Assembly: GCA_016712625.1 (NCBI GenBank)
Contig: JADJQQ010000031.1
Span: 83,634-115,633 of the forward strand
DNA length: 32,000 nucleotides
Source of the DNA: Candidatus Competibacteraceae bacterium
GTDB taxonomy: Bacteria > Pseudomonadota > Gammaproteobacteria > Competibacterales > Competibacteraceae
Direction: 5' to 3'
Positions 298 through 29,375 of the stretch are shown piece after piece; position 1 is the stretch's first letter; each line of letters opens with the position of its first letter. The notes below the pieces were generated by a model. It searched no databases. It saw nothing but the letters and a program-made list of their open reading frames with translations, and was not told the DNA's origin. Made by a program: the position numbers and the translations under genes.

Positions 298-611
298 CGA
301 GCGATCTCCGGCGTGATGTTTCGAGCATCGCATCGACAGCCGAGTAGGCAAGTGCTGCGCGACCTCCGCCAATGTCGAGTGGTCGGCAGGGCATTTTTTG
401 AGTCTGTCAATTTTTCGACCGATGCTGCTCGCCGATGAGCCCTGCACCCTTAACCGGTGAAATTCCTGCCGCTCGCGATCACCGGGCCGAATGCAGTGCA
501 GGGGTGTCTTGATCCGGTCGCTTCAGGCCAGTACCGGTGTCGGATCAAATAGGTCCTCTTGCCGAGGCGCAGTGTAGAAGACTGTTTCTTCCGTTGGCAT
601 GGCGGCTGTTC

Positions 612-932
612 CTAACGATTGTGGTGCAAAAAATCGAGTAACCGGCGCAAGCCATGATATTTTTTCTTGCCCCGCCCTCGTTCGGCCCAGACGCCGGTGT
701 GGGGCCAGACATCGACCAGCGGACAACGCGGCCCCCCGGCGATCAGGTGCGCACCCGCGCCGTGGCTGTAGAGCGGGATGCCGCCCGCTACCAGGCGGCG
801 GTAGGCGGAATGGCACCGGTCGCGGTCGGTGCGACGCCGCCGAGGCAAGGCGCGGTCGGGCGGCGTGTGGGCCTCGGCCCGGCGCGGTCGGCGGCGGGTT
901 GGATCGGGGTAATAAGGGGCAGAGGATGGCAT
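612..932 (-). CDS. hypothetical Arg-rich small protein (106 aa), possible extra gene downstream of the PRTRC ThiF gene
   Basis: This is the distal part of the 612..1454 ORF. An internal ATG at 932 has GGAGA 7 nt upstream and lies 71 nt downstream of the ThiF stop. Third codon positions are mostly G/C, as in neighbouring genes. No recognisable domain. In DNA this GC-rich it could be a chance ORF. Confidence 0.3.
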   Translation of the reverse strand: MPSSAPYYPDPTRRRPRRAEAHTPPDRALPRRRRTDRDRCHSAYRRLVAGGIPLYSHGAGAHLIAGGPRCPLVDVWPHTGVWAERGRGKKKYHGLRRLLDFLHHNR

Positions 933-967
933 GGGCGTTCTCCGGTGGAGGGCATGGCCGTCCGGGT

Positions 968-1015
968 ACGGGGACGGATTTAACGACGCGGACGGGGACG
1001 GATTTAACGACGCGG
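968..1015. repeat. perfect 24-bp tandem duplication (ACGGGGACGGATTTAACGACGCGG x2) spanning the ThiF stop codon
   Basis: Read directly: 968-991 and 992-1015 are identical. The TAA stop of the ThiF-like gene (rc of 1004-1006) lies in copy 2. Confidence 0.9.
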
Positions 1016-1780
1016 TGGCCAGCCGAAGCTGGCCCAGATCTGGGGGTCGGCGCGCAACGGGCGGACGCTCAAGGTGGCCAAATCGACGAACGCCCCGTGC
1101 GTATCGAGCCGCCCCTCGCGAAACAGGCGCCACAGCAAGGTCAGCGCGATGTCGGCGACGATCCGGTTTATGGGGAGTGCTTGCCGAGCCAGTGAGTCCG
1201 CTGCCGAACAGGAGGGCGCACGATGGGCCTCGTTGAAGGTGGCCAGTTCGGGATAGAGCTGAAACACGTTGGGCACCCAGCCCGCACCCGTCCGCGCTCG
1301 CCAGTGGCCCAAAACCACTTGCGCTTCGTGTTCGTCGTTGCCCGCATCCAGCCACCCGATGGGGTTCGTGATGGCGCGTGAGAGCGCCTGTGTCCGTCGT
1401 CCCAGATCGGCACGCACCGACGCGCGATCCACGGCGGTGATCAGTAGATCGCACGCGCTATCAGCGATCCGCCGGAGAGCGAACCGGTGTGGAACCGCCA
1501 CCCAATCCAGCCCCAGCGTCAGATTGATGCGCTGGATCAGGGTTTCTGCTTTGTTTTGGCCGATCTCTCCTGGCCAGAACGCCTGGCGACCGATGTTCGC
1601 CTCACGTACTCGGTCGGGATCGAAGACCGTGACGTGTAATCCGCCCGGATGGCCAAGCGCACGCAGGGCATGATCCAGGGCGGCCAGCGCGCCAAACAGA
1701 TGCGAGCCGGTGCCGCCCGCACCGATCAACCACACCCGCACCGGGCGGTGCAACCAGCTCTCAGGAATCTGTAAGGCCAT
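1004..1780 (-). CDS. PRTRC-system ThiF/MoeB/E1-like adenylyltransferase (258 aa)
   Basis: ATG 1780 with GGAGAA 5 nt upstream. Rossmann loop VWLIGAGGTGSH and an ANIGRQ motif are typical of ThiF/E1-type enzymes. It is the terminal gene of a ParB...ThiF cassette. Confidence 0.85.
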   Translation of the reverse strand: MALQIPESWLHRPVRVWLIGAGGTGSHLFGALAALDHALRALGHPGGLHVTVFDPDRVREANIGRQAFWPGEIGQNKAETLIQRINLTLGLDWVAVPHRFALRRIADSACDLLITAVDRASVRADLGRRTQALSRAITNPIGWLDAGNDEHEAQVVLGHWRARTGAGWVPNVFQLYPELATFNEAHRAPSCSAADSLARQALPINRIVADIALTLLWRLFREGRLDTHGAFVDLATLSVRPLRADPQIWASFGWPPRR

Positions 1781-1843
1781 TTGCTTTCTCCGCTGTTAGG
1801 GATGCTTTTAGCATCGCATCCGTGTCGCTTCGGGCAAGCGGCA

Positions 1844-2503
1844 TCACGTCGTGATGAAGGGCCAACACCAGCGCCACACGACCAGCCGCCAGACCTCTGT
1901 TACGGTCTCGATGGTTTCGCGGCGACCGAACCCCACGGCGACATACACCCCATCGCCGCCGGTGGCGTCCGCTACATCGTCCTGGGCGGAGAAGGTGGCC
2001 TCCCCGAAGCCATGCGAATGAACGTGCAATACCAACTGCGCTTGAAGCGCTATTGGCAGCGGTTGATAGGCAATATGACCGGCATCGCGGCGCCTGATCG
2101 GCGGCTCAAATACCCGGTAGGTCGTGCCATCGTGCGGCAGGTAGGCCGCCCATTCCCAAGGGCAGGCAGCCACCGCGCGGCGCTTGAGATCATGCCAAAG
2201 CGAGGGCGGCGGCGGTGCGTGTCGTAAGCGCACCCCGATCCGAGCCGACCCATACGGCAAGCCGTCGGGCAGCGTTGCCAGCGGCAGGCTGGCTTCCAGG
2301 GCGGCGGTGCGTGTCTGGACGAACAGGCCATTGCGCGCCAGCACGTAGCGCGACCGCCCGTCTGCCAGCGGTGGCAGCGGTTCACCGCTGGGCGGCTGAA
2401 TCAGGGTTTCGGCGGCGGCGCAGCGCCTGATCGGCGGCTCGAACACCCCGTAAAATAAGGGGGATTGACGGGATTCACTGCACAATCTCCTCAACCCAGG
2501 CAC
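1844..2503 (-). CDS. PRTRC-system protein A, JAB/JAMM-type metallopeptidase domain protein (219 aa ORF; start uncertain)
   Basis: HSHGFGEATFSAQD matches the JAMM signature HxHx7Sx2D exactly (rc of about 1976-2026). It sits between the E2-like and E1-like genes. The only in-frame start in the ORF is GTG 2503, which overlaps the upstream gene by 29 nt and has a weak RBS. Confidence 0.8.
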   Translation of the reverse strand: MPGLRRLCSESRQSPLFYGVFEPPIRRCAAAETLIQPPSGEPLPPLADGRSRYVLARNGLFVQTRTAALEASLPLATLPDGLPYGSARIGVRLRHAPPPPSLWHDLKRRAVAACPWEWAAYLPHDGTTYRVFEPPIRRRDAGHIAYQPLPIALQAQLVLHVHSHGFGEATFSAQDDVADATGGDGVYVAVGFGRRETIETVTEVWRLVVWRWCWPFITT

Positions 2504-3206
2504 TCAATGTCCGATGGAAGGACGCGAGTGCGGCGCTCGGAAAATGGGCTGCGCCGTCTAGCCGTTGCCAAAAAGCAAAATGGGTTTCGGTGCCGATCCG
2601 CTCTTGCCCAGCCAGCATGAGCGTGCGGTCATGACTCACATGGCTAAAATGCGTGTCACAGACGGTCGCTTCCCACGCGGGAAGGGCGGTAATCGCCCCC
2701 TCGGGCGGTGGCTCGGCATTCCCCAGACACACCGCACCGTGGGCGTTGACGTTCATGAGCGGGGCATGACAGAGCATCGTGTTCGGTTGGGGGCGACCAT
2801 TGCGGGCCAGTGCGGCGCACCAGAGATCACGGCCCCGCGCCACGAACACTAAAGGCGGCCAGGGCACGCGAAAACCGAAGCGTTCGCCGTGCAGTAAAAA
2901 CCAGATCGGGGCGATGTGGGCGCGCCGCCACCAGACGGAAAAATCCCGGCCGCGCGCCAACAAGGTGTTGGGAAGCCACACGGTATCGTCCACCGGGGTC
3001 TGATCGGCGAGTGTCGCCAACCAGCCGTGCAGGTCGCGGTGGGTGAGGGGCCGACCCGCGCCGATGACCGACTGGCCGGAACGGGTGGCCCGTAACGGGT
3101 GAACGGTGGCGAGCAGCCGCCCTTGGCAGGTGTAGAGCAGGAATGCGGCGCGCGGAACGGGCAGATCGGGCAGATCGGGCAGCATGGTGAGTGACATGAT
3201 GGCCAT
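2475..3206 (-). CDS. PRTRC-system protein B, E2 (UBC)-like fold candidate (243 aa)
   Basis: ATG 3206 with GGAGG 7 nt upstream. The segment CHAPLMNVNAHGAVCLGN resembles the E2 HPN...G-x-[IV]-C-L active-site region. It occupies the expected position in the PRTRC gene order. Confidence 0.75.
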   Translation of the reverse strand: MAIMSLTMLPDLPDLPVPRAAFLLYTCQGRLLATVHPLRATRSGQSVIGAGRPLTHRDLHGWLATLADQTPVDDTVWLPNTLLARGRDFSVWWRRAHIAPIWFLLHGERFGFRVPWPPLVFVARGRDLWCAALARNGRPQPNTMLCHAPLMNVNAHGAVCLGNAEPPPEGAITALPAWEATVCDTHFSHVSHDRTLMLAGQERIGTETHFAFWQRLDGAAHFPSAALASFHRTLSAWVEEIVQ

Positions 3207-3290
3207 CGGAAACCTCCAAAACGGGGACGTGAGGAGCGGCTAAACGATGATTCAGCCTCTCACGGAATCAGCATCAGGCCAGACGGCGTC

Positions 3291-4511
3291 CTATTCAAAG
3301 GGCAACCCCTGGGCGGCGGCGTCCGCTTGGCAGGCCCCGATCAAAAGGCCCTGGCCAATGGCGAAGGCCAGCAGGGTCTCGTACAGCGCCGGGGTGTCCG
3401 GGTCAGCGCGCAAGGCCCAGCCGCACCCTTCGCTGTTGGAGAGATATTCAACTGATTCTTCCAGCCAGGTCGCTTCCCACGGCTCGTTGAAACCCAGAGG
3501 CTGGCCATAGGCCAATGGCTCCGCATCCGTCTCCACCAGGAGCGCCTGTGCGGGCGATTGCGGCCAGCGTCGGCAGGCGCGGCGCAAGGTCAAGACCGCC
3601 CGCCGCAGCCAGCGACACCAGGGCGTTGAGGCCAGACCGGGCCGGCGTCGCCAGCGCCACAGTCGCCGAAGGAGGCCACAGAGGATGATCCTGTCCTCTG
3701 GCGGGTGGCCTCGCGCGTGCCAGCGTCGCAGCCAGATCGGCTGTGGCTCATAAAAGGCGGTCTGTTGCGCCCACCACCTCTCGAACTCGTCTTGATCGTT
3801 CCAGCCAAACCAATCCGACCACGCCTCGTTTTCGCTGGCCGCCGCCCAACGGGTACCGGGATCGGTGTGACCCAGGGCGGCGATTTCGTGGTAGGCGGAT
3901 GCGGACTCATCCGCCCAGCAACCCGCCCAATCGCGCAACAGGACGCATTCGGTCAGGCGGCAGCCGATCAGGGAGAGCGTCTGCGCCACCGCCACCGCCA
4001 CCGCGGGTGGTAGCTCGTCCAGATGGAAGGTATGGGGCCAGAGATTTTCCAGCGCCAGAAACAGAGACGGGTCGTCGTCGGTATCGACCAGAGTGAGGGT
4101 GGCAAACGGCGCCCAATCCGGCATTCGGGCGGGGTCGAGGACGCAGCGGCGGGCGGTGGCCTCGATCCAGACCGGCAGTCCGCTCAGCGCCTCGCCCAGT
4201 AACCGATACAACGCCGCATTCGGCGTGGGACTGTCGAAGGCCGCGTCCAACGCGGCCTCGGTGAGCCAACCGCCCTCCACGGCCAGCCGCAGCAGCGCCG
4301 CCACACACCGCCGACGCGGATGAAGCCAGGCGTGGTAAGCCCCCTCGCGCAGCCGCGCCCAGGCGAGGCCCGTGAGATCGCGCGCCCGCCGGGGAAGCCG
4401 CAACGGATTCACGGGGGCGGCAGCAGGTGGGGCGGCAGATCGAGCGCATGAAGGCGGCGGCGTTCGCCGCCGGGTAGCGGGTCGAACAGGTGTTCCAGTC
4501 GATGGCGGCAT
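3291..4511 (-). CDS. PRTRC-system protein F-like (406 aa from ATG 4511; ORF extends to GTG 4577)
   Basis: Long ORF in the position of PRTRC protein F, between C and B. ATG 4511 has GGAGA about 7 nt upstream. Trp- and acid-rich sequence (WSDWFGWNDQDEFERWWAQQ). The assignment rests on synteny only. Confidence 0.6.
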   Translation of the reverse strand: MPPSTGTPVRPATRRRTPPPSCARSAAPPAAAPVNPLRLPRRARDLTGLAWARLREGAYHAWLHPRRRCVAALLRLAVEGGWLTEAALDAAFDSPTPNAALYRLLGEALSGLPVWIEATARRCVLDPARMPDWAPFATLTLVDTDDDPSLFLALENLWPHTFHLDELPPAVAVAVAQTLSLIGCRLTECVLLRDWAGCWADESASAYHEIAALGHTDPGTRWAAASENEAWSDWFGWNDQDEFERWWAQQTAFYEPQPIWLRRWHARGHPPEDRIILCGLLRRLWRWRRRPGLASTPWCRWLRRAVLTLRRACRRWPQSPAQALLVETDAEPLAYGQPLGFNEPWEATWLEESVEYLSNSEGCGWALRADPDTPALYETLLAFAIGQGLLIGACQADAAAQGLPFE

Positions 4512-4604
4512 CGAACATTCTCCGCGAAAACGGGTCGGTCCAGCGGGTCGGCGAGCGCGGGCAGCGCCCCTTCGCACGCCCAGGCCCGCAAGCGATCCAG
4601 GCCA

Positions 4605-4820
4605 TTAGCCATTGGTCTTGACCGGGGGCTTTTCGATGGGATAAACCCACACGCCGTCACGCTCGTAGGGTTCGCCCAGCAAGGCGTTGGCACAGTGTGG
4701 ATAGGTCGGCGCAAAGGCTTTCACCGCCTCGTGGGGCGATAAGGACGGCGCGGGGTCGGGCAGTTCGAGGCTGCCGATTTGAAAGCGACGGATCAAGGGT
4801 TGCACGGTCAGCGCGGTCAT
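4605..4820 (-). CDS. PRTRC-system protein C, small ubiquitin-like candidate (71 aa) ending in Gly
   Basis: Internal ATG 4820 with GGAGAA 5 nt upstream. The product MTALTVQPLIRRFQIGSLELPDP...EKPPVKTNG ends in a C-terminal glycine. Size and position match PRTRC protein C. Confidence 0.7.
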   Translation of the reverse strand: MTALTVQPLIRRFQIGSLELPDPAPSLSPHEAVKAFAPTYPHCANALLGEPYERDGVWVYPIEKPPVKTNG

Positions 4821-4846
4821 CAACTTCTCCTGATCATCAAGGGGGC

Positions 4847-5287
4847 TCAAAATAAACTGTCGGGATTCACGGTGAGATCGACGGCGGGCTGTGAGGTCGC
4901 CGCCCCGGCTTGACTGACGGCCTCCGCCGGGGCGGATTCCGGCGGGTCGCATGGCGCTCGCTTCGTTTGGCTAGCCTGTCGCGCCTGCCGCACCGCTGTC
5001 TCCAGGGCCGCCAGGCCGTCCGCTTCCATGCGCAATGCCGCGCGCTGGCGACCGTACCGCGCCAGGGCGGCGGGCAATTCCTGATCCAGCGCCGCTGGCG
5101 TTCCCCGCACGACCAAAGGCTGGTGCAGGGCCTCGCGGGCCGCGTGCAGCGCGGGATCGCTGGCTGCCGCCGAGGGCTTGAGCTGCGGCAGCACCAGCAC
5201 GGTCAGTACCGCCCCCTCACGGCGGAGTTCAAAATGCAGCGTTTCTTCCGCCCCAAGACAGGTTGCCAGTACGCTAAACAGAGCCAT
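4847..5287 (-). CDS. PRTRC-system protein E-like (146 aa)
   Basis: ATG 5287 with GGAGA 6 nt upstream. The product begins MALFSVLATCLGAEETLHFELRREG and has an Ala/Gln-rich C-terminus. It is the first gene after parB, as in PRTRC cassettes. Confidence 0.6.
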   Translation of the reverse strand: MALFSVLATCLGAEETLHFELRREGAVLTVLVLPQLKPSAAASDPALHAAREALHQPLVVRGTPAALDQELPAALARYGRQRAALRMEADGLAALETAVRQARQASQTKRAPCDPPESAPAEAVSQAGAATSQPAVDLTVNPDSLF

Positions 5288-5412
5288 TACGATCTCCAAT
5301 CGGTTGATATAATAGTATTTTTTCATAAGACCGACGTAGGGCAAGCACCGGCGTCGGCGGTAGGGTGTGAGGAGGTGAGCGCCTCATCGGGTGCTGACGC
5401 CGTAGGCCCGGT

Positions 5413-7209
5413 TCAGGACGCCAGGCGTTGAAAGCGCGTTGCGATGGCGTCGGGTAGCCAGGCCGAGAAATCGAAGGTCGTTTGTTCCAGCGCGGCGATC
5501 AAATCAGCCAGTTTGCCGTCGATCAGCCGGTCAAAGGCTTTCGTGTCCGTCGGGGATGGGCGCTGGGTGCGCCCATACCACGCGGCGAAGGTTTCTTCCG
5601 TCGGTGAACGGGCGCTACGGAGCAAGCCCTCGATAGCCGCTTTGGTCTGTGCGCGCCAAAACGTCGTATCCGGGCTAAAGGCGCTGGTAAGATCAATGTG
5701 AGCGACCGCCAGCGCCGTTTGCGCCGCCTGCACTGTCTCACTCTGACCTGGAAGATCACCGCGATTGGCGTCCCGATGGCGCACGAGGTGCTGCACCAGG
5801 GCGAGGCGCAGGTGCTCTTTTTGATCGGTCGTCAGCGGATAAAAGGCTGCAATCAGACCCGCGTGCCGTTGTAAAGGCGCGGTCTCCGTCAGGCCCACCG
5901 CCAGCAGGACGCTCCGTGGCGCTCCGGCGTCGCGATACAGCGCCGCCAGCGTCCACGCCGCCAGGAGAGCGGGATCACGGCTAACCGCCTTGGCGGCTTG
6001 GTGGCGTACCCACCCATCGATCCATACCTCCACTTTCTTTGGGTTGCCCGCCGCCCGCGGTGGTGGGGCCGTCACGGGCTGGGCCACGGGCCGGACATCG
6101 ACGGGGGAAGGGGTAGCGACCGGATGGGCGGCAGTGACTTTCTCGTGGTGGCAGGCCCGATCAGTACACAGCGGGGCCTCGACCCCGCCTTCCTGGCCGG
6201 GTTGGCTGGACAAACGCGCCGCGAAAGCGCGACAGGTCTGACAGGCGGCGAACTGGGCGGCCCCCACGCCATTCGACCCCGTGGCGGCTAGCGTCGTCCA
6301 GGTGTTCGGTGCGCGTTCCGTATCCAGAAACACCGACGGATACGTGGTTTCCAGTTCGGCTTTTTTCGCCAAAAGCGCCTGGCGCGTTTTTTCCGCATGG
6401 CAGGCCCGGTTCTGGCAGCGGCCTTCGCCCACCGCGTCGGCAAACAGCGCCGCCTGGCGCGTGGAATGATGCGGACAGGTCGCGCAGTCGGTTTTGTCGA
6501 AAATCGCCGCGTTCAAATCAAGCGCAAAGCCACTGATACGCGCTTTGAGCGCCGCCACTGAAATGGCATCGCTCAAGATTTTGGCCAGCGTGCCGGTCTG
6601 GGTCGCTTCCGGCAGGCCCGCCAGCAGCTCCGCATGACCGAGCTTGATCCGGCGTTGCGTGAGCGCCTCCAGCACGGCGGGGGCCGCGTGCAACAGCAGC
6701 AGACGCGCCTCCAGCTTGGGCAACGACCAGCCCAGCAGCCGCGCCGCTTCGGCCCGATCCCCTTCACAGTCCCCCACGAACCGTTGCGCGAAGCGCGCTT
6801 CTTCCGCCGCCGAGAGGTTAACGCGGAAATGCGGGTTGTTTTCCAAGTCTGCCAGCACCAGCGCCTGACGCTCATCGGCCAGACGAACCGTGACCGGCAC
6901 GGCGGACAGACCGACGGCGCGCGCCGCCCGTAACCGCCGTTCACCGGCAATCAGCCAAAAGCGCGGTGCGGCGGGATCATAGTCCGGCGCGGGCCGCACC
7001 CACAGTGCCTGCTGGACGCCATGCCGCTCGACCGACGCCACCAACGCGGCGAACTCGGCGTCCTCGAAAAAGGTGCGCGGGTTAAACTCTGGCCGAACCG
7101 CGATCCAGTCCGGCGGCAGATACAGTAACTGCCCATCGACGGCGATCAGGGGCAGGGTGGGCGTCATCACGGGTAGGGCGGGCATCACCCTCGCAAGCGG
7201 GGCATTCAT
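5413..7209 (-). CDS. parB: ParB/Srx-domain protein, PRTRC-associated ParB family (598 aa)
   Basis: ParB box LIAGERRLRAARAVGL (GERR motif) in the N-terminal third. A long C-terminal extension carries two C-x2-C...C-x4-C-H modules. It is the first gene of the cassette. ATG 7209. Confidence 0.85.
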   Translation of the reverse strand: MNAPLARVMPALPVMTPTLPLIAVDGQLLYLPPDWIAVRPEFNPRTFFEDAEFAALVASVERHGVQQALWVRPAPDYDPAAPRFWLIAGERRLRAARAVGLSAVPVTVRLADERQALVLADLENNPHFRVNLSAAEEARFAQRFVGDCEGDRAEAARLLGWSLPKLEARLLLLHAAPAVLEALTQRRIKLGHAELLAGLPEATQTGTLAKILSDAISVAALKARISGFALDLNAAIFDKTDCATCPHHSTRQAALFADAVGEGRCQNRACHAEKTRQALLAKKAELETTYPSVFLDTERAPNTWTTLAATGSNGVGAAQFAACQTCRAFAARLSSQPGQEGGVEAPLCTDRACHHEKVTAAHPVATPSPVDVRPVAQPVTAPPPRAAGNPKKVEVWIDGWVRHQAAKAVSRDPALLAAWTLAALYRDAGAPRSVLLAVGLTETAPLQRHAGLIAAFYPLTTDQKEHLRLALVQHLVRHRDANRGDLPGQSETVQAAQTALAVAHIDLTSAFSPDTTFWRAQTKAAIEGLLRSARSPTEETFAAWYGRTQRPSPTDTKAFDRLIDGKLADLIAALEQTTFDFSAWLPDAIATRFQRLAS

Positions 7210-7384
7210 CAGAGAGAACTCCGGTGGGGAAAGCTATGTTCAGCATCCCACCAAAGTGGATGGAGGCAAGCGCGGCGCGGCGATCACCCCAACCTGGCTG
7301 TAGGCTTCTCTGAATAGCGAGGCGGTGGATTAACTGGCTGGCGGGTTTCTGAAACCGCGCATGATCGCTAAGGGCAACAAAAAC

Positions 7385-7440
7385 GCATTCATGTATTTCC
7401 ATAGCTACGTATTTGTATAGCCATGTAGATACGTATTTCA
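7385..7440. promoter_or_regulatory. AT-rich segment upstream of parB with three copies of [AC][TC]GTATTT; candidate promoter/operator or ParB-binding site
   Basis: ATGTATTT at 7391, ACGTATTT at 7407 and ACGTATTT at 7431, plus CATGTA at 7390 and 7422. This is the only strongly AT-rich patch between parB (start 7209) and the next ORFs. Confidence 0.25.
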
Positions 7441-7647
7441 GTTGGAACCGATCTGCTTGCCGCCACGGGGTATGGCTCGCTATAGCGGCCGCCTCTTTCT
7501 CCCTAAGCCAGACGGATTGTCGTGTACCGTGCGCGGTGGCACGGGCCGCCATTGGAATGTGAAATTGATGGCAGGGGGGTCTCCTTATCCCCCATCCAGC
7601 ATTCATCCTCGCTTTTATATCATCTCCGTAGGACGCTGTACGCATTC

Positions 7648-8052
7648 ATGCCGCCCTGCCAACGACTATTACTCGCCCCAGCATCCAAGGTGGATTTCTG
7701 CTGCCACATCACCCAAATAGACGGTAGGCGCCTGGAGCACTTGAACCACCGTGGCAAGCGCGAGGCGTTGCTCGCCCGGCAGGCCGGACAACCGGTTTCG
7801 GCTTTGCGAGCGCTGACACTGGACCGCTATATCAGCTCCTTGTTTGAAAGCGTGAACCGCGCGGGAAACACGCCTTGGATTTTGCCGGTGGGTGTCTTCC
7901 ATCGCCGCCGTCGCGGCGTGCCATTTTGTCCGCTATGCTTGCAAACCGAGGGGTTCTGTGGGCACTCTGAACGATGCGCCTGCTTGGTAGGGGCGCTCAA
8001 TCTGGCGGTGATCCAACTGGTAGCGGATCGCTTGCCGGTCGCGGCTTTTTAA
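7648..8052 (+). pseudogene. TniQ-like (Tn7/Tn5053-type transposition protein) gene fragment
   Basis: The ORF part from ATG 7648 contains ...NTPWILPVGVFHRRRRGVPFCPLCLQTEG..., resembling the R-x-x-FCP-x-CL zinc-ribbon signature of TniQ-domain proteins. The usual N-terminal helix is missing and the sequence is nonsense-like after the motif, so it looks decayed or truncated. Confidence 0.35.
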
Positions 8053-8252
8053 CTTTGGATACTGGCCGCGGGCCGCTTCCCATTCCGCCCCAGCCAATAA
8101 TCCGGCCCGCGGATCGGCGTAGCGCCAGCTTCGAAGGACTGGCGAATGGCTCGCAGAACCGCTTTCCGCTGACCTGGTCGGACCGCAAGGCCAAGATCAG
8201 CAAGATCGTCGGTTGGACAGTGTGCGAGGCATTCCCCCGCGGCAGCCACGCG

Positions 8253-9275
8253 ATGGCGGCAGCGGTTCTCGATTTCTGGACAAGCGACTTGGCTGCCCTG
8301 ACTGAGCGCCTGAAGAAAGGAACCCCTGGACTTGAGCCCACGCTGTGCGAGCGCCCAATTCTGAAGATCGGGCAACAGCTCATCGAGTTGCCTTGGATGT
8401 TCGGTCTGCAAAACAACAGTACCGCGGCCATCAACAATCTTCGCCGTCTCGGGGCGCGCCGTGGGGAGGCCAGACTCGAAACACGCCGCATTGAGGAGCG
8501 CCTCGGCAATCAGCTTGAGTCGCGCGGATTCCGCGTCGTGCTGAACTGGCTGCCTGAGGATGACGCGCGAGCTGGCGAGGTCGATCTGATCTGCGCACTT
8601 GAGCAAACGGTGCTGGTCATGGAGGTGAAATCGACCTTTATGCGGCAGTCCCAGCGCGATGCTTGGCTGCACCGTACAACGACGCTTCGCAAGGCGGGCC
8701 AACAGGTAAGGGACAAAGTCGCCGCCGTGCGTAGAGCTTTGGCACCGAATGACGCGCTTGCCCAAAAGCTGGGAATTCGTGGAGCAAGCGATCCGCTCAC
8801 TTCGCTCACAATGCATGGCTGGATCGTCGATACCTCAATCGAATGTGATCATCAAAGGTTCAGCGGTTTTCTCAAGGTGTCCTTGGGGGAAGTGCTGATC
8901 GCCTTGCGCGACGATCACTACCTTCTCAATGATCCCGAAGGCATCTTTTCCGGTCGCTTTCTGGAACCGGGCTTTGCGCCTCCGGAAAACCCTCGACAGC
9001 AGGCAACGCTTTACCCATCCGGTTTTTCTGCCAGCCAGTTTATTCGTGTGATCGAACAGGGGGTTTGCGGGGTAAGTAAAACCTGCGGTGATCGACCGAA
9101 TAATCAACCAAACCGAAAACGTTCCATCACCAGCTTGGCCTTTGATCTGGCGTTGCGGGCGCGGTGCGAGTTCTCAAACCGTATCGCTTACCCAGTACCT
9201 GCTTCGGAACTCCGAACCAGCACCATCAGATGCTCTCGTGCCCGCGTCGCTGCCACATATTTTTCAAATCGATGA
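8253..9275 (+). CDS. NERD-like / PD-(D/E)xK nuclease-fold protein (ORF open from 7974; ATG 8253), possibly an N-terminally truncated remnant
   Basis: GEVDLICALEQTVLVMEVKSTF gives a D...E-x-K core preceded by EERLGNQLESRGFRVVLNW, which is the NERD-type layout. GC is visibly lower than in flanking genes. The 3' end converges on and overlaps the helicase gene by 88 nt. Confidence 0.45.
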   Translation: MAAAVLDFWTSDLAALTERLKKGTPGLEPTLCERPILKIGQQLIELPWMFGLQNNSTAAINNLRRLGARRGEARLETRRIEERLGNQLESRGFRVVLNWLPEDDARAGEVDLICALEQTVLVMEVKSTFMRQSQRDAWLHRTTTLRKAGQQVRDKVAAVRRALAPNDALAQKLGIRGASDPLTSLTMHGWIVDTSIECDHQRFSGFLKVSLGEVLIALRDDHYLLNDPEGIFSGRFLEPGFAPPENPRQQATLYPSGFSASQFIRVIEQGVCGVSKTCGDRPNNQPNRKRSITSLAFDLALRARCEFSNRIAYPVPASELRTSTIRCSRARVAATYFSNR

Positions 9276-11247
9276 CGTACATCGCTGCGGTCTTCCTGCG
9301 TTTGCTCGAGGATCATTAAGACGGCACGAAACTCCAGTCCCTTGATGCGCTGCATGGAGCCAAGCCGCACGCCAGGCTCCGCCTGCCCAGGATCGGCTTG
9401 CCGGGGTTGCAATTCCAACGTGCTGATGCCGGCGGATTCGAGCGCGGTGCGAATGAATCCGACGCTGGGCGTGACGCAGATCTCATGACTGCCCAGTTTT
9501 CCCTGATCGAGCAAATGCTGAATCCAGGTCACGGCGTAGTGGGCCAAAATGGTGCGGTCGGAGAATGACCGAACCTGAGGCTCGGGACCGCGGAACACCG
9601 AACGGTCTCCCGTGGTATCGGCGCTCCCGCCATCCAGATCATCCACGGGGACGCCCGCCAGCAAGCCCTGCGCCCAGCGCCGGATCTGTTCGCTGGTTCG
9701 ATAATTGATCTTCAGCCGGCGGGAACGGCCGCGCACCTCGATCCCGGCGCGGCTCAAGGGGATGGCAAGGCTGTGGTAAATCCGTTGGTGACCATCGCCG
9801 ATCAGGCACAGCGGATCGGACGGGTTCCCAGTCGTCGGCGTCAAGGCGGCGATCAGCCGGAGTGCTTCGAGGCCAAAGTCCTGGAGTTCGTCGACCAGTA
9901 CGTGCCGATAGGCGGTAAAGCCGCCCCGCTCGACCACCAGCCGCGCCTGATGGACCAGCCCCTCGAAAGTCAGGCGATTGCGCTGGTGCAACAAACGGTT
10001 GAATTCCAGGAATACCGGCCAGAGCGTCCGCCGTTGTTTCCGGTCCAGGCGCGGGCGGCCGGACCGAACCGCCGTCAGGTAGCCTTCTTCGCTGTCGATG
10101 CCCATCGTATCGATCACCAGTTCATATTCGTCGCGAATGCAGTCCCGGTCGAATCCGGCGGGCAGGGGGCCAGCCAGCACCGTGCGCCACAGGTCCTCCC
10201 GTTCGGCGTCCTCGATCACCTTGCCCTGCCAGCCGCCTCGCAAACAGATGGTCCGGGCGAGTTGATGCAGATTGGTCACTTCGATCTTCCGGGCGGCGTC
10301 CGGCGCCAGCTTCCGGATCAATTGCTCCAGGGTGACGGACAGGGTGGTGGTGTACGTGGTCACCAGCACCCGATCCTTGGGATCGCTCAACTGGCGGGCG
10401 AGATGAACCGCCCGGTGCAGGAGGGCCACGGTTTTCCGGTGCCCGCCGCGCCGTTGATCTTGATTGGACCCTGGGTCCGCCATTCGACCAGTCGGCGCTG
10501 ATAGGGATGCAGGAAGACGCGCCATTCCTCAAGGTCCTGGGAGAGGATGGCTTTCAGTTGCTCTTCCCCTTCGATCAAGACCAGGTCCATATTCATGGCC
10601 TGATCCAGATGAGTGAAATCGCCCGGACCGGCCAGCGGCGGCGTTGGCTTGGCCGGTTCGCCGAGCATTTCAGCGATAGCCTCATCCAGGGAAAGACCGC
10701 AAATCACACCGTAAAGCACCTGGATGGCTTCCTTGGGCAGATAGTCCGCCACTTCCTGGAAGGCCCCATCATTTCGGATCGCGCGCACCGCCGGGATCAA
10801 GGCCCGGGGAGTCCCCGCCTGGAACAACTCCTCGTCGCTCAGTGTGTCCAGCGGGTAATGACCGGTGGGCGTGGGGTGTTTCCGCGCCTGGGCGTCCGCG
10901 GTGGCCTGGATTTCCTGAACATCGAAGACTTGCAGGACGCCGAGGGCTGGGTGGGCCTCAAAGCGTTTGTTCCGGCACCAGCGATACGCCTCATCATGGT
11001 GATCGATGTACATGAGCAGGAAGTTGTCGCCCTGTTCCGGCGCGATGACGACCGCCCGGTAATCGTCGCCGATGCGCGCGCTGCGGACCTTGGGATCGAC
11101 GGCTTCGGCGAAAGACTCCAGGTGAATGGAGGCTTGAGTGCTGTCGTCCTGAAACTTGCGGACAAACTCGAAAACCTTTTTCTGCACCCGGATCGGCAAC
11201 CGGCCAAAGTCCTTGAGCACCTCCCGTGACAACATCAGTTTCGCCAT
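9188..11247 (-). pseudogene. UvrD/Rep-like superfamily-1 helicase with an N-terminal RelE/ParE-toxin-like domain, disrupted by a 1-nt deletion inside the Walker A motif
   Basis: Two overlapping ORFs (10387..11448 and 9188..10525) join into one protein if one A is added to the run at 10432-10435. The observed GGA AAA CCG reads GTGK-PWPS. GGA AAA ACC GTG would restore INGAAGTGKTVALLHRAVHLA. Downstream helicase motifs are present (VLVDELQDFG, INYRTS, GLEFRAV). ATG 11247 has GGAGG 8 nt upstream and lies 4 nt after the upstream stop. Confidence 0.8.
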
Positions 11248-11251
11248 GCTC

Positions 11252-14200
11252 TTATCCTCCCACCGGCAGCATGGCGCTGAGCCATGCCGTTCCTCGGGTT
11301 TGAAGGTCGGCCAGGGTGACCACACGCCAGCCCGCCGCCTGCCATTCGGCAGCGAAAGCGGCCTGATCGCCCACCACAATGACAACCCCTCCGCTCTCGC
11401 CCTCCCTTTGGGTAGGGGAAGGCGCCTTGCGCCAAGCCAGCTCGGCAAAGCAGTCGCTGGCGGCGGACCGGTAGACCTCGACTTCCGGCAGGGTGACGCC
11501 CGCCGCGGCCAGTTGCGTGACTACCGGTTGCAAGGCGGGAACGACGGCTTGCCGGATCTCCCGCCAGCGCTCATCCAGCGCCGCCTCGCGCTCCAGCTCC
11601 AAATCCGGCGCCGTTCCCTGCGCTACCTCGGTAGCGACGAAGACCTTGAACTGCTGGCGGAACTGGAACAGGTTGACCAGCGCCAGAAAACGCCGCCAGC
11701 GGTCGCAAAATCCGGGTTGCGCTCTGTCCTCGGCGGAGTCGAGCAGACGCAGCCAGACCTGGATGCGGTCGGCCAGGCCATTAATCGCATCCGGGACCGA
11801 GGCCAGCGCCAACAGATCGTCACCCTCGGCAGCCAGTTTCTCAGACACGACCCACTGGCCTTCCGGGTTGACCGACGGCATGGCAACGCCGGCGCGGTCG
11901 CGCCACCGTTCGACCGTATCGATCAGGGCGGCTTGTCCAGAGGCTGCCCCACTGCCCGCCAGCAATTGCAGGGACAGCATCAGGCATTCATCGGCCAGCC
12001 GGGTCCAGCCGGGACGATCCGGCGCCAGCAAATACGCCTTCAACTGGCTGAAACCATCGGCGGTCGCGAGCCGAACGTCTGGATGCTGGACGCCCTGCTG
12101 TCGGGCCGCGGCGAGTCGAGGCGGCAGGATCCTGGCGACAATAGGAGGCTGAAGCAGTCGGATCGGCGTCTGCGGATCGGGATTCAGATCGTGCCAGGTG
12201 ATGTTCCATACGCCATAAAGCCCGCTGTCGAGGATGGCGCGCCGCTTCCTGAAGTCGTCGGGCAGGCGGCTGTCGGCCTGGCCCGGCCGGACATGCGGTT
12301 CGAAGCCGTCCGCGAAAATGGCGACGGGTCGGATCTCCGGATCGTCGGCGGTCAGCAGGAAATCCGGCTGGCAGGGTATCGCCACGCCTTGCTGCGGGCC
12401 GAGCTTGGGTTGCAGTTCCAGCGCCCAGAGCCGGGGATGAGCGCCGACCCGGAAGCGGAACCCGAGCGCGCCCTTGATGAGGGTTCGGGTCCATTCCCCC
12501 GGCTGACCGGCGATGTCCGTGGCGACAAATTCCCGCAACCGGTCCACCAGCCGCTTTTCCAGCAAGCTGCCGAACAGCGCTCTGGCGTCAACCTGGTCCA
12601 GGGTCTTGACGAGCGTTCGCCGCTGGCCGGCCTCGATCAGACGGCCGAGCAGCCGGATACCCCGCTCCCGGCTGATCTGGTCCGACCGGTACTGAAGATG
12701 ATAGGTGCGGATGCAGCGATAGCAGCCATCCGGATCATCCTGGCCGTGCCGGCAGGGCAGCAGGCGGCAACTGCACGACTCAAGGGCGTCCCGGGCACGG
12801 CGGAGCAGATCCATGATGCCTTCGCCGGGCAACCCGGACGCACCGCCGCCAGTATCCTGAAACAGCGTTTTCAGGAAACCGGTGCCCCCGGGAACCGCGT
12901 CCATCAGCACCAGGTAATGCCTGCGCAGGCCATCCTGGGGTTGCGGTACGCTCTGGGGCATCACCAGCAAATGGCCGGGATTGCCCTGGAACCGCAGCCG
13001 GAACCCCAGCACGAGGCAGGCGGTCAGCGTCGCGATATCGTCCTCGTCCACCTCGGGCAGCAGGATGCGAATCGCCTCGGAGCGCAGTTCCCGGTACAGG
13101 TAGAACGCTTCCCACTGGTAGGCATCGCCCGGCCGGCCCTCGCTTTGCATTTTTTCGGTCTTGCGCCGCCCGGAACAACTGCGCCGATGCCTGAGTTGGC
13201 TGCGGTCGCCGTCGCTGTCGACCGTCACCCCGCAATGGACGCAGGCCAGGAATCCGGTGTCCGAAACCTGCTGATCGACGCCGAACGGGAGGCTGCCGGG
13301 GATTTCGGCAAACCCGGTGTTGACCTGGCGCAGAGCCAGCGCCGCCCGGTATTCGATGCCGAAGGGTTCCATCTCGTCCGCCACCGCGCCACTCGGCCCA
13401 TCGAGGGTGGTGTCGAAGCTGTTCACGAGGCGATAGAAGCGCTGTTCCCGCTCGTCGGCCCGGTCGCCGGACAGGCTCTCGTAATGCTCCATATAGGAGA
13501 TCGCCTGGGACCGGGCGAACTCGAGAAACCGCTTGTGCTGGCTCCGATCCTGTTGTGAATGCGCGTCCGCGGCATAGCCGCACTGCGGGCAGACCGGGGA
13601 GGCATCGGGCCGGTTGAGTTCGTCGGTCCGCCGGATATGTCCGCATTCGCCGCAGATCGCCCACTGTTCCAGCAGGGGCTGGGCTGGCGCGCCCAGCGCA
13701 AGCTGCTGGATTTCGAACGCATGGCTGTGAGTGTAGAAGCGGTTGCGGGGGGCCAGTTCCCGCAACGCCGAACCTGCGCCCCGCACCAGGTCATAGGCCT
13801 GCAATGCGCCGTCATGCTCCCGACCCGGACCGGGCCGGCGACGATGGTCGTTGTAGAGCACGCCGTTGAAATGCACCCCCCGTTCGGGAAAGGCGTAGTT
13901 CGGCAGCAACCCGTATTCGATCAGGATTTCCAGGACCGTGGTGCGATCCAGGTGGGTCTGCCTCACGCGCAGAATCCGGTTTTCCTGTTCGATTTCCCGC
14001 AGACTTTCCCCGTCGCCGTTGACTTCGGCTTCTTTCTTCTGGTCGGTGAGCCGTTTCCGCGCATTGACGATCGCCTGGCGCTGGCGGTCGAAATCCCGGG
14101 CGGCGTGGTGAATGCGCTCCCGCAGCACTTCGGCGCGGCTTTCCCGCAGAAACCGTTCCCGGGTATCCTCGCGCACGTCGGCGCTGAACCGGGCCAGGAA

Positions 14201-17200
14201 CGCGCCCTGGAGCGCGGCTTCCCGCTGGGTCGCCCAGGCCAGGAGCGATGACAGCGGTCCCTGGCCGCTGTCCAGATCCTCGACCAGTTGCCGGCCGGTG
14301 GCGGGCAGCGCCTGGATCACGCCTTCTCGGACCGCGCTGTCGAAACAGAACGCCAGATACTGGCGCACCAGCACCGCGCTGGCGTCCAGCCAGCAGCCCG
14401 GCGGTTCGATTTGGCCGGCCAGCATTTCTCCCGGGCGGCCGAAGAAGAACAGATCGTGAGGCCGCTGATTGATCACCGCCAGCACCAGCGCCGTGCCGGT
14501 GCTGCGTCCGGCGCGGCCGATCCGTTGCAGGTAACTGGCGGTGGTGGGGGGGATCGAACACAGCAGGGTGCTGGACAGATCGCCGATATCGATGCCCATT
14601 TCCAGCGTCGAGGTGGCGGTCAGCACGTTCGGATCATCGGCATGGCCGCCGTGATTGAACTGATACTCGAGCGTTTCCCGTTCCTCGGTGGTCAGCAGAC
14701 CGGTATGCTCCTGCGCAAACACGCGGCGTAAAGCGCCTTTGCGATAGCGCTGCTGATAATAGATTTGCCGGTCGCTGGAAACGATCTGCTGGTAGCGACC
14801 CTGCTCGCCCTGGTAGGCGAGGGTGGGCGCGCCGTCCCAGTCGGCGGCCTCATGCCAGGGGCGATACAGCCGCTGGCCGTTGTCGTCGCACGCATATTGC
14901 ACACCGTCGGCCCACAGGCGCGCGCCGTCGGCGGACAGGGCGATCAGGCGCTGATGGCCGTCGCGCTGCACCTCTCGCAGCAGGCCCGATTCGCAACCCG
15001 CCTCCAGGAAGGCCCGAATCAGGTCCAGGATCGAGGTTTCCGGAGTATGGGTCAGCGCCAGCGCGCGCCGCGCCCAGACGATCTGCCAGGGGGATATCTG
15101 GCCCGGCCGGGAGGAAGCCAGCAGGTGATCGTGATCCCGGTGCGGCGCCAGGGCCATCAATCGGGGCCGATAACGTCCGGCGGGCGGGAACAGTTCCCGG
15201 CCAGGAACCACCTTGCCAAAGGGATATTTGCCCCAGTAACGCTGGCGGGCGTAACTGTCGAGATAGGGATGATAGAGACCTCCACGTTCGCGCTGGCGGT
15301 GCAGGATGCCGAGCAGCCAGCGGCGGAGCCGTCCAGCGCCGGTAGCGGTGTCCCCCACCACGAGCGACGGATCGATGGCCGGCAACCGCCGGCGCACGAG
15401 GGCCACGGTAGCCTCGATGACGGCCTCATCCCAGCCCAGGGTCGCGCTGGCATTACCTTCCAGGGTCCGGCCATGGGTCAGCATCAGGCTGAATTCGCTG
15501 CACGCTTCCCAGGCGAGCCGCTGTTCGATGGCGGTGTGCAACGGGGCATCCGGAGGCGTGTTCGGGGGTTGTTCGCGGTAGGCGAGATAGGGTGGGTATT
15601 CGCGCAGATCGGGCGGCAGCAGGGTCGAGATCGCCTCCCGGAGGCTGCCCGGGCGACCCGGAACCGGTTCGCTCCAGTAGTCCAGCAGGCGCGCGCCGAG
15701 GGTGGCGAGCGGCAGTCCGTCGGCTCCGGCCTCATCGATAACCCGTTGCAAGGCCGTGCGCAGGGTGAAATGAAAGGTGCGGGCCGAGAAGAAGCCGGCG
15801 CGGTGGCTGGCGTCCTGGACGCTGTCGGTAAAGGCCAACAGTTTGGGATCGTGGTTCAGCACCGACCCGAACAGTTCATCGATGGCGACGCTGCCCAGAG
15901 TGGCGGCCTGGGCGCCGATGAACATCAGGGAATCGTCGCTGCGGCAGTGGGGGCACTTGACCGCGCCCACCGTCTGCCCGGCGGCATGGGTGCGGGTGTC
16001 CCGGTTTATCCGGACGCGGAAGGTCGGGCTGCCGGTCAGCGGACAGGGTCCCGGTCCCAGGCGCAGGACCAGACTGTCTTTGGACAAATGCCATTCCGCG
16101 ATCGCCAGCGCGCCTTGGGCGGGCGCCGCGTCATCGTCGGGATACCAGGGACTGAGGGCGACCATCCACTTCGACATGGGCCGTTCGAATCCCCAGCCCT
16201 GATAAATCCGGGCGACGTCGGCGATCAACTGAAAACCCTGGACGCCGCGCGCCTGAATCGGATTCTCGGAATCGGGATCGACCATCGCCACCCAGACCGA
16301 CTCGCCGCATTCGGTGCAGTGGGCGACCGGCAGGATACGCTGATCGGGGCGCTGCTCATCCAGCCAGCCGAAGACCGGCTGGTCGCTGACCAGGCGGCCC
16401 AGGCGGCGCAGCTCCCGGATCCACAACTGCACCTGGGTCGGGGTCAGGGGCCGGGGTGGCAACAGTTCCGCCCCCTCACCCCCGCCTTCCCCCGCGAGGG
16501 GGGAGGAGGCCTTGCGGCGGGATTCCCGGGCCTGGGCGACCAGGGCGAAGAATGCCGACAACACTTCGCTACGCGCGCCAAACTCCGGAACGGCGCGCAG
16601 GGAGGGATCGGCGGTAGCCACTTGGGCGACCAGTTCGGACCAGGTCCGGGGACCGTCCCGGGTGGCTTCCAGCAGGCCGGCGAACAGTGGTTGCGACCGG
16701 ATCCACTGGCCCAGGGCCAGCGTCCAGCGCGTTGCCGGGGTGTCATCACCCGGCGGCAGCCGGCCGGGGAACAGCGTCGTCCCGTCGTCGGTCGGGAAGG
16801 CGGGCGCGCCGAACCGGGGAGCGATCCGGCGAGCGAATTCCGGGGCGGTTTCGCCCTCGCGCGCCCGGCTGTCGCCGGGAGCCGGAACCGGGGTGAAATC
16901 GGCCAGCGGCGCCCGCAGGATTTCCTCGACGGTGAGCCGGTCTTCGCCGATCACGCATTCCGGCTGGAGCGGTTCCTCGAACAGCCGCCCGGCGAAGTCG
17001 GCCAGGCGCGCCAGCGGATCCTGGGTGGTTTCGTCGTCCCCGGCGGCAATCGTGGCGCTGGTCCCGATGCAGCACAACTCTCCCTGGGCGATGTCCAGCC
17101 GTTCCTTGAGCCGGCGGATGAGACAGGCGACATCCGCCCCCTGCGCCCCGTCATAGGTGTGCAGTTCGTCGAGGACCAGATAGCGCAGGGTGCCTTTGCG

Positions 17201-17944: not shown

Positions 17945-18370
17945 TTATGGCCCATGATCCCAAGGATTGATCAACATTAACGGAGCCGCCGCAAAGTCTC
18001 GAACATTGCGCGTGACCAGAGCCAGGCCGTGCTCGACCGCCGTTGCCGCGATGATCGAATCGAAGGCCGCCATCGGCTTGCCCATCGCCTCCACTTGGGC
18101 GCACAGCTCGCCCCAGTAACCGGCCGTATCGCCGGTAAAGGGCAGAACGCGCTCGCCCAGGCTTGCCTGAAGCTGATCCAGCCAGACCAACAACTCGCTT
18201 TTGCGGCGGGAGACCGGCAATTTGGCAACGCCGCGGCGCAATTCCGCCAGCGTCATCGCTGCGACAAACAATTCGTTCTCCGCCCGCGCATCGACCCAGG
18301 CCAATACGGTGCTATTGGGGGCCGGTTTCACGAATTCCGACAACACGCAGGTATCGAGCAGATACTTCAC
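17945..18370 (-). CDS. vapC: PIN-domain toxin, VapC/FitB-like (141 aa, GTG start)
   Basis: VKYLLDTCVLSEF..., ...LAELRRG... and ...DSIIAATAVEHGLALVTRNVRDF supply the conserved PIN acidic residues. GTG 18370 overlaps the antitoxin stop in a GTGA junction. The stop TAA (17945-17947) lies only 3 nt before the ATG of the 2229-aa helicase. Confidence 0.85.
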   Translation of the reverse strand: MKYLLDTCVLSEFVKPAPNSTVLAWVDARAENELFVAAMTLAELRRGVAKLPVSRRKSELLVWLDQLQASLGERVLPFTGDTAGYWGELCAQVEAMGKPMAAFDSIIAATAVEHGLALVTRNVRDFAAAPLMLINPWDHGP

Positions 18371-18609
18371 CACTCGATCTCTCGCACCGGCTCGGCCGAG
18401 CGTTCCAGGTCCAGCGGTTCGCCGCGCGGGGCGTTCCGCAGCACCTCCCGCAACGAGAGTCCCGAGCACAGGCGGCGGAATTCGGGCGCGGCGATCACCA
18501 CCACGGCCTCGGCGCCGCGCCGGGTGACCAGTTGTGGACCTTCCGCCAGGGTGCGATCCACCAGTTCGCTGAATCGGCTTTTGGCTTCCTGTAACTGCCA
18601 GGTGTGCAT
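18367..18609 (-). CDS. Phd/YefM-type antitoxin (80 aa)
   Basis: MHTWQLQEAKSRFSELVDRTLAEGPQLVTRRGAEAVVVI is a typical Phd/YefM N-terminus. The 4-nt GTGA overlap with vapC is classic type II TA geometry. Confidence 0.8.
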   Translation of the reverse strand: MHTWQLQEAKSRFSELVDRTLAEGPQLVTRRGAEAVVVIAAPEFRRLCSGLSLREVLRNAPRGEPLDLERSAEPVREIEW

Positions 18610-27900: not shown

Positions 27901-27964
27901 TCACCAGCCATTCGGCATCGCGGCAGAGAACCCGCATGCCGGGGGCGATCACGGGTTGGGTCAT
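24956..27964 (-). CDS. SNF2-family helicase/translocase, DrmD-like (1002 aa from ATG 27964; ORF open to 28021)
   Basis: [15 protein letters not shown] (motif I), VVIDEAHNV (DEAH, motif II), LTATPHNG (III), [12 protein letters not shown] (V) and [12 protein letters not shown] (VI). The TGA stop at 24956-24958 overlaps the TTG and lies 2 nt before the ATG of the methylase gene. Confidence 0.9.
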
Positions 27965-28087
27965 CGGAAGCCTTTTTGTTGTTCTGTGACGCGCCTGACT
28001 ACGTTCGAGCAAGGCAGGCACTAGTATGTCTAAAACGGGCTAAGCGAAACAGATCATCGAAAACCGTGGAGGCGATGCCTTTGGCGG

Positions 28088-28450: not shown

Positions 28451-28464
28451 ACCTTATCCATCAT

Positions 28465-28500: not shown

Positions 28501-28527
28501 CTTGCTACTGTCCAAGCGATCAACCAT

Positions 28528-28934: not shown

Positions 28935-28943
28935 GGTCTCCGT

Positions 28944-29358: not shown

Positions 29359-29375
29359 TCATTGGCAATATGATT

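Follow-up and report, generated by a model that had tools for sequence, protein, structure and literature searches.

Gene content, comparative rules and predicted function of a divergent PRTRC cassette in a Competibacteraceae contig

What does a ParB-linked set of genes for a ubiquitin-like protein (Ubl), E1-like and E2-like enzymes and a JAMM peptidase do on mobile DNA? This question is raised by positions 1004–7209 of a 32,000-nt stretch of a Candidatus Competibacteraceae contig (JADJQQ010000031.1), hereafter the window, to which all coordinates refer. The locus lies entirely on the minus strand, is bounded by the stop codon of ThiF and the start codon of ParB and is, with near certainty, an intact, divergent ParB-related, ThiF-related cassette (PRTRC) of operon type 6d (Iyer et al., 2006). 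Type 6d was described as including an E1-like protein, an E2-like protein lacking the classical histidine but having a conserved histidine C-terminal to the cysteine, and a rapidly diverging α-helical protein, and R. metallidurans, Rhodoferax, Azoarcus, Bacteroides and Anabaena were named as carriers (Iyer, Burroughs and Aravind, 2006; PMC1779556). The replicons named in that study are replicons that carry PRTRC in our survey. The ubiquitin-like reading of PRTRC is therefore a published prediction dating from 2006, is also embedded in the Pfam names Prok_Ub, Prok-E2_D and Prok-JAB, and has no novelty here. New from our comparison are three points: protein A is optional and tied to a C-terminal extension of protein C, the slot of protein F is always filled and hypervariable, and the core of the cassette occurs in temperate phages.

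Identification as PRTRC was judged by the curated trusted cut-offs of the NCBIfam/TIGRFAM hidden Markov models (HMMs) TIGR03734–03738 and TIGR03741–03742 (Table 1). ParB, E, B and ThiF scored above their cut-offs, A and C matched their models significantly but below the cut-off, and F had no match, so that a check by PRTRC-family HMMs, suggested in the initial annotation of this DNA, supports part of the cassette directly. The E-values of the matches ranged from 4e-105 (ParB) to 1e-6 (C), which, together with the recurrence of the same gene order, argues against a chance assignment. This order, ParB-E-C-F-B-A-ThiF with all genes co-directional, had been noted initially and is found in the annotation of plasmid pMOL28 of Cupriavidus metallidurans CH34 and of a Xanthomonas plasmid; HMM labelling of the fetched loci recovered it in 47 of 102, and most of the remainder were truncated contigs or lineage variants. 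In a Pfam scan, C matched Prok_Ub (37.8 bits, cut-off 25), B matched Prok-E2_D (96.7 bits), A matched DUF2016 above threshold (45.1 bits) and Prok-JAB slightly below it (24.3 bits, cut-off 25), the E1-like protein was assigned to the ThiF family, and ParB contained ParB_N and HTH_ParB domains. The roles proposed at the outset (Ubl, E1-like, E2-like and JAMM) agree with these assignments and with type 6d. The motifs quoted with them (GAGGTG and NIGRQ in ThiF, an exact HxHx7Sx2D in A, a glycine directly before the stop codon of C) were all found in place, and the two catalytic residues singled out, Cys160 of B and the terminal glycine of C, turned out to be the conserved ones across the family. 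With intergenic gaps of at most 125 nt the genes form a compact operon, in which A and B overlap by 29 nt. All seven open reading frames (ORFs) are intact in the window copy and each conserved catalytic residue is retained. A scan of window positions 400–8000 for promoters and terminators was uninformative.

The E1-like protein contains the sequence IGAGGTGS at residues 19–26 (GxGGxG, 1703–1726) and NIGRQ at residues 62–66 (1583–1597). Among 91 distinct ThiF sequences, the residues G20, G22, G23, G25, D54, N62, R65, Q66, K77, D118, R123, D145 and C191 are invariant, the last of them within a PSCS motif and encoded at 1208–1210. When a profile of the family was compared with the PDB, the best matches were the adenylation domains of Uba1, UBA3 and SAE2 (E-values 7e-13 to 9e-10), with ThiF and MoeB (4e-8 to 5e-7) and Cap2 (5e-7) at lower ranks. 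In protein B, the active-site stretch HAPLMNVNAHGAVCLG covers residues 147–162, and the pattern P149-x-x-N152-x7-C160-x-G162 is encoded at 2721–2768. An alignment of 83 distinct sequences shows no variation at P149, N152, C160 and G162 and very little at W178 and E179, and 92% of the sequences keep H189. An HPN/Cys-like motif had been seen here in the initial annotation; its proline, asparagine and cysteine are indeed invariant, whereas His147 is not a family feature, as V, E, H or R may stand in its column. Judged from the alignment, the E2 motif of the family is P-x-x-N-x7-C and the conserved histidine is H189, C-terminal to the cysteine. The eight-residue spacing between asparagine and cysteine is the same as in the classical HPN...C motif of E2 enzymes such as UbcH5, Ubc9 and Ubc13. 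Each of the 81 loci with both C and B encodes such an E2-like protein with the invariant cysteine and asparagine.

Protein C of the window ends in KTNG, and the stop codon follows directly after Gly71 (codon 4608–4610). Family-wide the tail reads (V/A/I)G(T/A/V)KG, whereas the subfamily of the window has PVKTNG, which is kept with its terminal glycine in 20 of 21 subfamily homologues. Termination exactly at this glycine was observed in 53 of 81 C proteins, including all window-type copies; elsewhere the glycine is followed by 2–7 residues (Cupriavidus and Paraburkholderia types, for example AGAKG-AYAQI in pMOL28) or by 46–67 residues. An AlphaFold2 (AF2) model of C with a pLDDT of 81 has a strand-strand-helix-helix-strand-strand order that is compatible with a β-grasp fold. 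In the C proteins of Georgfuchsia/Sulfuritalea-like loci (L031, L036–L040, L049, L051), VGTKG is followed by an extension of 56–59 amino acids, and most of these extensions end in a second basic-glycine tail (VVRKG, VIRRG or VFRKG), with RKE or RRS instead in L036–L038. Such a second tail may represent a second cleavable or conjugatable end.

The JAMM motif of protein A, HSHGFGEATFSAQD at residues 162–175 (1979–2020), conforms exactly to HxHx7Sx2D with H162, H164, S172 and D175. The upstream glutamate of the motif is present as E117, and the N-terminal DUF2016/JAB-N domain contains a conserved R52; these six residues are kept in 95–98% of 66 sequences. The occurrence of A follows the C-terminus of C. 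All 36 loci with an extended C, 34 genomic or plasmid loci and two temperate phages with extensions of 62–63 amino acids, have A. The 14 loci without A belong to Bacteroidota, one Pseudomonas megaplasmid, Deinococcus and one Competibacter-like contig, and every one of them has a C that ends at the glycine (Fisher p = 1.4e-4, kinship ignored). From this pattern we infer that A is optional and would be required only where C has a C-terminal extension, as expected if A cleaves after the glycine and C works through the free carboxylate of this residue. The window A contains two copies of the peptide VFEPPIRR, at residues 20–27 (2423–2446) and 131–138 (2090–2113). The first copy starts at an alternative GTG codon (2446), so that a duplicated segment may be included in the N-terminus as annotated.

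The protein in the F slot had no match in Pfam or NCBIfam, nor to an HMM built from 53 canonical F proteins. TIGR03742, which recognizes the F protein of pMOL28 with 286 bits, also misses the F-slot proteins of the Xanthomonas plasmid and of the Pseudomonas megaplasmid, and was negative with ten distant matches from an F profile search. In profile-profile comparison by hhalign, a shallow profile of window-type F aligned to canonical F with 75.6% probability; after enlargement to 86 sequences this rose to 96.1% (E-value 3e-9, 314 colinear columns), and the conserved LxLP, W, P, T, E and DD/EE positions of both groups coincide. We consider it very probable that the protein is a highly diverged PRTRC protein F, the link being made by profile-profile comparison only. 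An ORF of 303–487 codons lies between C and B in 81 of 81 loci that have both genes. Hence the F slot is universal yet hypervariable, in agreement with the ‘rapidly diverging’ helical protein of Iyer et al. (2006). The AF2 model of F (pLDDT 81.8, pTM 0.78) is confident from residue 62 on and consists of a disordered N-terminus and a mainly helical domain. Foldseek found no structural relative of this model in the PDB (top E-value 2.2). Its one match in a library of viral structures, an uncharacterised Caudovirales protein of 384 amino acids (E-value 1.6e-4, TM 0.3), is uninterpretable alone.

Protein E has a conserved N-terminal head of about 100 amino acids, a linker rich in Ala, Pro and Gln, and the C-terminal tip NPDSLF. 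This layout, in which a long disordered linker, either acidic or rich in Ala and Pro, joins the head to a short, hydrophobic, conserved tip, is common to about 60 loci, with TDLASLL as tip in Cupriavidus, EDNLFA in Georgfuchsia-like loci and GLWE or ALWD in Gallionella. By analogy, it recalls the docking peptides of single-stranded DNA-binding protein (SSB) tails or of clamp-binding proteins; dnaN or ssb genes adjoin the cassette in L002, L004 and L018. ParB has an N-terminal domain with a GERRxRA box (residues 89–95), a helix-turn-helix domain and a long C-terminal region. At residues 242–353 (6151–6486) it contains two CxxC...Cx4C motifs, CATC...x19...CQNRAC and CQTC...x21...CTDRAC, each followed by H-x-EK, which from their pattern may be tandem zinc-binding modules.

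A PRTRC ThiF gene was detected in 381 of 72,556 plasmids in PLSDB, and all plasmid records listed were at least 95 kb long. The window ThiF is at most 45% identical to these 381 copies, and no near-identical DNA was found among PLSDB plasmids. Its nearest genomic relatives are encoded in Candidatus Competibacter and in Competibacteraceae metagenome-assembled genomes, with 64–72% ThiF identity, and the window copy is thus a divergent member of a Competibacteraceae type. Copies with 97–98% identity were found in no fewer than four different metagenome assemblies. One of them, L014, matches window positions 566–7695 at 97.4%; past position 7695 it continues with insertion sequence (IS) elements, whereas the window has NERD, UvrD-like and DruE-like genes, indicating that the cassette sits on a block that occurs in different contexts. 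Directly downstream of ThiF, a conserved ORF of 106 codons was called in the 97–98% identical copies (L014 12278–12598, window approximately 610–930, minus strand); it had no match in an NCBIfam search. On plasmids and related contigs, the neighbours of the cassette are ssb, dnaN, topA, HU, parA/parB, DNA methylase and DUF932 genes, and PRTRC is also found in many chromosomal islands. An E-C-F-B-A-ThiF core without ParB is present in the temperate phages Ralstonia phage Dina (L102, 947–5299) and Burkholderia phage BgVeeders33 (L103). These genomes have 33–39 kb and carry the core in the early region beside regulatory and replication genes; in BgVeeders33 all of its genes except ThiF are annotated as hypothetical.

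At intermediate divergence (54–87% protein identity to L011 and L008), the ratio of nonsynonymous to synonymous substitution rates (dN/dS) was 0.13–0.37 for all seven genes, lowest in C and highest in F; all seven genes are under purifying selection. L016 is 98–100% identical to the window outside the E-F segment, and its F has 91.6% amino acid identity and a dS of 0.114 and its E a dS of 0.079, compared to 0.005–0.02 in the flanking genes. The E-F segment (3291–5287) of L016 thus seems to have been replaced by recombination.

From the conserved residues and by analogy to characterized systems, we regard it as fairly probable that ThiF adenylates C, that a thioester relay runs through Cys191 of ThiF and Cys160 of B, and that A cleaves after the glycine. 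In the window lineage, C would be made in mature form with Gly71 free at its C-terminus, and the single-domain ThiF would adenylate Gly71 in a site formed by GxGGxG, NxxRQ, K77 and D118. C would then probably be loaded on Cys191 as a thioester and be handed to Cys160 of B, with Asn152, eight residues upstream, in the role of the classical HPN asparagine, and B would join C to an amino group of some target. A would cut after the glycine and would mature C in those lineages that have an extension. Where C ends at the glycine, as in the window lineage, only deconjugation or proofreading would be left for A, so that some relatives could dispense with it. F, whose slot is always filled and evolves fast under purifying selection, would be the prime candidate as specificity factor or target. 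The folded head of E, followed by a disordered linker and a docking tip, would suit an adaptor, and ParB may tie the module to the DNA of the element.

Further support for such a mechanism comes from the characterized Bil, Bub and Cap2/Cap3 systems, which perform conjugation with the same parts list. Among the types defined in 2006, 6B corresponds to type II CBASS, 6C to type II Bil and 6E to Bub, and all of them have been shown or argued to be conjugation pathways. The window cassette corresponds to PRTRC as known from pMOL28 and from the phn island of Delftia sp. Cs1-4: it has the same seven genes, order and conserved residues and shares with type 6d the small Ubl with a conserved terminal glycine, the JAB protein with an N-terminal α+β domain, the diverging helical protein and the E2-like protein without the classical histidine. 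It differs from other members in its distant ThiF and its C tail, and in A and C below the curated cut-offs and an F that is invisible to TIGR03742. Bil (BilABCD), for which thioester-based conjugation to lysines was shown experimentally, likewise has separate genes for the Ubl, E2, JAB/JAMM peptidase and E1. However, the Bil E1 is a multidomain protein (IAD-AAD-CYS), whereas the 258 amino acids of PRTRC ThiF make up one domain; Bil also lacks ParB, E and F partners, and its type II (CEHH operons) is type 6C and not 6D. Bub (6E/DUF6527) resembles PRTRC in a Ubl with a conserved terminal glycine and in its E1 and E2 homologues, and in type I a JAB protein matures a Ubl fusion. In contrast to PRTRC, with its invariant Cys191 and Cys160, the E1 and E2 of Bub lack the catalytic cysteine and use an oxyester route, and the Pfam scan found no match to the DUF6527 serine protease, the hallmark of Bub, on the cassette proteins. 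Type II CBASS (Cap2/Cap3) shares an E1 adenylation domain, an E2, a JAB protein and carriage by mobile elements, but Cap2 is an E2-E1 fusion that conjugates the CD-NTase and not a dedicated Ubl, whereas PRTRC encodes E1 and E2 separately, and the NCBIfam and Pfam scans detected no nucleotidyltransferase in the cassette. Since the defining features of Bil, Bub and type II CBASS are absent, we rejected membership in any of them.

Alternatively, C and ThiF could act as a sulfur-carrier pair of the ThiS/ThiF or MoaD/MoeB kind, in which a C-terminal thiocarboxylate on C would serve the modification of small molecules or nucleic acids. ThiF of the cassette is indeed a single-domain adenylyltransferase of ThiF/MoeB size with one invariant cysteine, its partner C is small and ends in glycine, and the PDB comparison matched structures of both ThiF and MoeB; yet eukaryotic E1 adenylation domains outscore them, and PRTRC adds an E2-like protein with its invariant residues wherever C and B occur together, usually a JAMM peptidase, and ParB, E and F. 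ThiF and MoeB carry zinc-binding CxxC pairs, which are not evident in the PRTRC ThiF sequence. Neither the annotation of four plasmid regions nor precomputed Pfam assignments of related metagenome contigs revealed biosynthetic neighbours, such as cysteine desulfurase, rhodanese or cofactor-biosynthesis genes. We consider a sulfur-carrier function very improbable and rejected it on account of the E2 and JAB proteins. Hardly more credible is that the window copy is an eroding, inert remnant that is passively carried by a mobile block. This idea draws on the window-type relatives, which often lack single components: ThiF is gone in L003, L008 and L011, A is absent in L004 and fragmentary in L006, where a methyltransferase-like ORF is inserted, and in L022 (dN/dS of A 1.2), L011 additionally lacks E and half of ParB, and L024–L026 are solitary ThiF genes. 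Against it stand the seven intact ORFs with all their catalytic residues, the nearly identical copies in separate assemblies and the low dN/dS values.

A host-protective anti-phage function, with conjugation of C to a phage protein as in Bil and the cassette as one module of a defence island, deserves more weight than either of these and is still unlikely in our view. The characterized bacterial Ubl/E1/E2/JAB operons are all antiviral (Bil and type II CBASS, Bub by context), a hypervariable F would fit an arms race, and in the window the cassette adjoins NERD, UvrD-like, DruE-like, PIN, type IIG restriction-modification (RM)/DrmMI-like and DrmD-like genes. A location on a mobile island beside a defence operon had been proposed initially; the adjacency is real in the window, but it is not conserved, as the IS elements of L014 demonstrate, and our gene survey of the window recorded no integrase, tRNA or transfer genes. 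The linkage to ParB also speaks against a defence function, as do the usual plasmid neighbours, which are replication, partition and establishment genes, and the temperate phages that themselves carry the core. In a PADLOC scan, A, B and F matched no model and ThiF had only weak matches to E1-E2 models (≤25 bits). Considering the plasmid neighbours, the phage-borne core and the PADLOC result, it is most likely that the cassette serves the mobile element, in establishment, maintenance or inter-element conflict, and not host anti-phage defence. A more detailed picture, in which PRTRC is a conjugation machine that plasmids, integrative and conjugative elements (ICEs) and temperate phages keep for their own benefit, with F as E3-like factor, decoy or target, E as adaptor, ParB placing the reaction and A maturing a pro-Ubl, is tentative and, taken as a whole, doubtful.

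Several observations weigh against a conjugation pathway that serves the mobile element. Defence systems that protect the host are likewise found on prophages and plasmids, and carriage by mobile elements is therefore compatible with a defence role. The frequent loss of single components in relatives of the window copy implies that selection on the cassette may not be equally strong in all lineages. A Foldseek search of the PDB with the model of C gave nothing significant (top match protein G B1, E-value 0.38), and neither sequence and profile searches of the PDB with C, which recovered no solved Ubl, nor those with B, which had no match (profile at E≤10), added structural support. Cys191 may be the E1 catalytic cysteine in a crossover loop, as judged from spacing only. 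The association between A and the extension of C comprises roughly 4–5 independent lineages per side, and the roles of E, F and ParB are conjecture. Our literature search yielded annotation-level mentions only and no experimental study of any PRTRC protein, in line with the initial description of PRTRC as functionally uncharacterised and with a 2026 paper that states this outright (PMC13366799). Many text matches to ‘PRTRC’ were names of pRtrCIAT899 plasmids or the PRtrc1O promoter and were discarded. In a 2025 preprint the acronym is resolved as ‘Pilus Retraction/Contraction system’ tied to type IV pili (bioRxiv 10.64898/2025.12.11.693706), which is a misreading.

PRTRC (6D) is the one bacterial ubiquitin-like operon type of 2006 for which the search found no experimental work. 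One divergent intact copy adds little alone, and its value lies in the comparative rules that make the question testable: A would be needed only with an extended C, F is universal and hypervariable, E has a conserved tip, and Cys191 and Cys160 are invariant. If PRTRC indeed serves the mobile element, bacterial ubiquitin-like conjugation would be broadened beyond antiviral defence.

Table 1. Genes of the PRTRC cassette and other features of the window, with scores for the PRTRC models (bits, trusted cut-off in brackets).
Feature	Position	Strand	Length	Model score	Remarks
PRTRC ParB-family protein	5413–7209	-	598 aa	TIGR03734, 352.4 (278.6)	above cut-off; Pfam ParB_N and HTH_ParB
PRTRC protein E	4847–5287	-	146 aa, counted from ATG 5287	TIGR03741, 50.5 (37.95)	above cut-off
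PRTRC protein C, ubiquitin-like	4605–4820	-	71 aa	TIGR03738, 28.6 (45.95), E 1.2e-6	significant, below cut-off; ribosome-binding site AGGAGA; Pfam Prok_Ub
F-slot protein	3291–4511	-	406 aa, or 428 aa with GTG start 4577	TIGR03742, no match at E≤10 (58.4)	hhalign to PRTRC_F
PRTRC protein B, E2-like	2475–3206	-	243 aa	TIGR03737, 154 (131.45)	above cut-off; Pfam Prok-E2_D
PRTRC protein A, JAMM	1844–2503	-	219 aa	TIGR03735, 81.7 (101.8), E 4.9e-23	significant, below cut-off; Pfam DUF2016; JAMM motif
PRTRC ThiF-family E1-like adenylyltransferase	1004–1780	-	258 aa	TIGR03736, 266.6 (144.75)	above cut-off
NERD-like protein	7974–9275	+			
UvrD/GajB-like helicase	9188–11448	-			two overlapping ORFs, 10387–11448 and 9188–10525
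DruE-like helicase with MrfA Zn-binding domain	11252–17941		2229 aa		
PIN protein	17945–18469				
Type IIG RM/DrmMI-like enzyme	19578–24959		1793 aa		
DrmD-like SNF2 helicase	24956–28021				
PIN/VapC-like ORF	28605–28934				judged by eye from translation
REP-associated (RayT-like) transposase fragment	29398–29661				judged by eye from translation

The defence-gene cluster that adjoins the cassette occupies window positions 7974–28021 (Table 1). Its UvrD/GajB-like helicase is split, and the ORF at 10387–11448 ends near a Walker-A-like GAAGTGKP; the split may reflect a frameshift or a pseudogene. At positions 28000–32000, which include the PIN/VapC-like ORF and the transposase fragment, the GC content falls from approximately 0.65 to 0.48–0.55.

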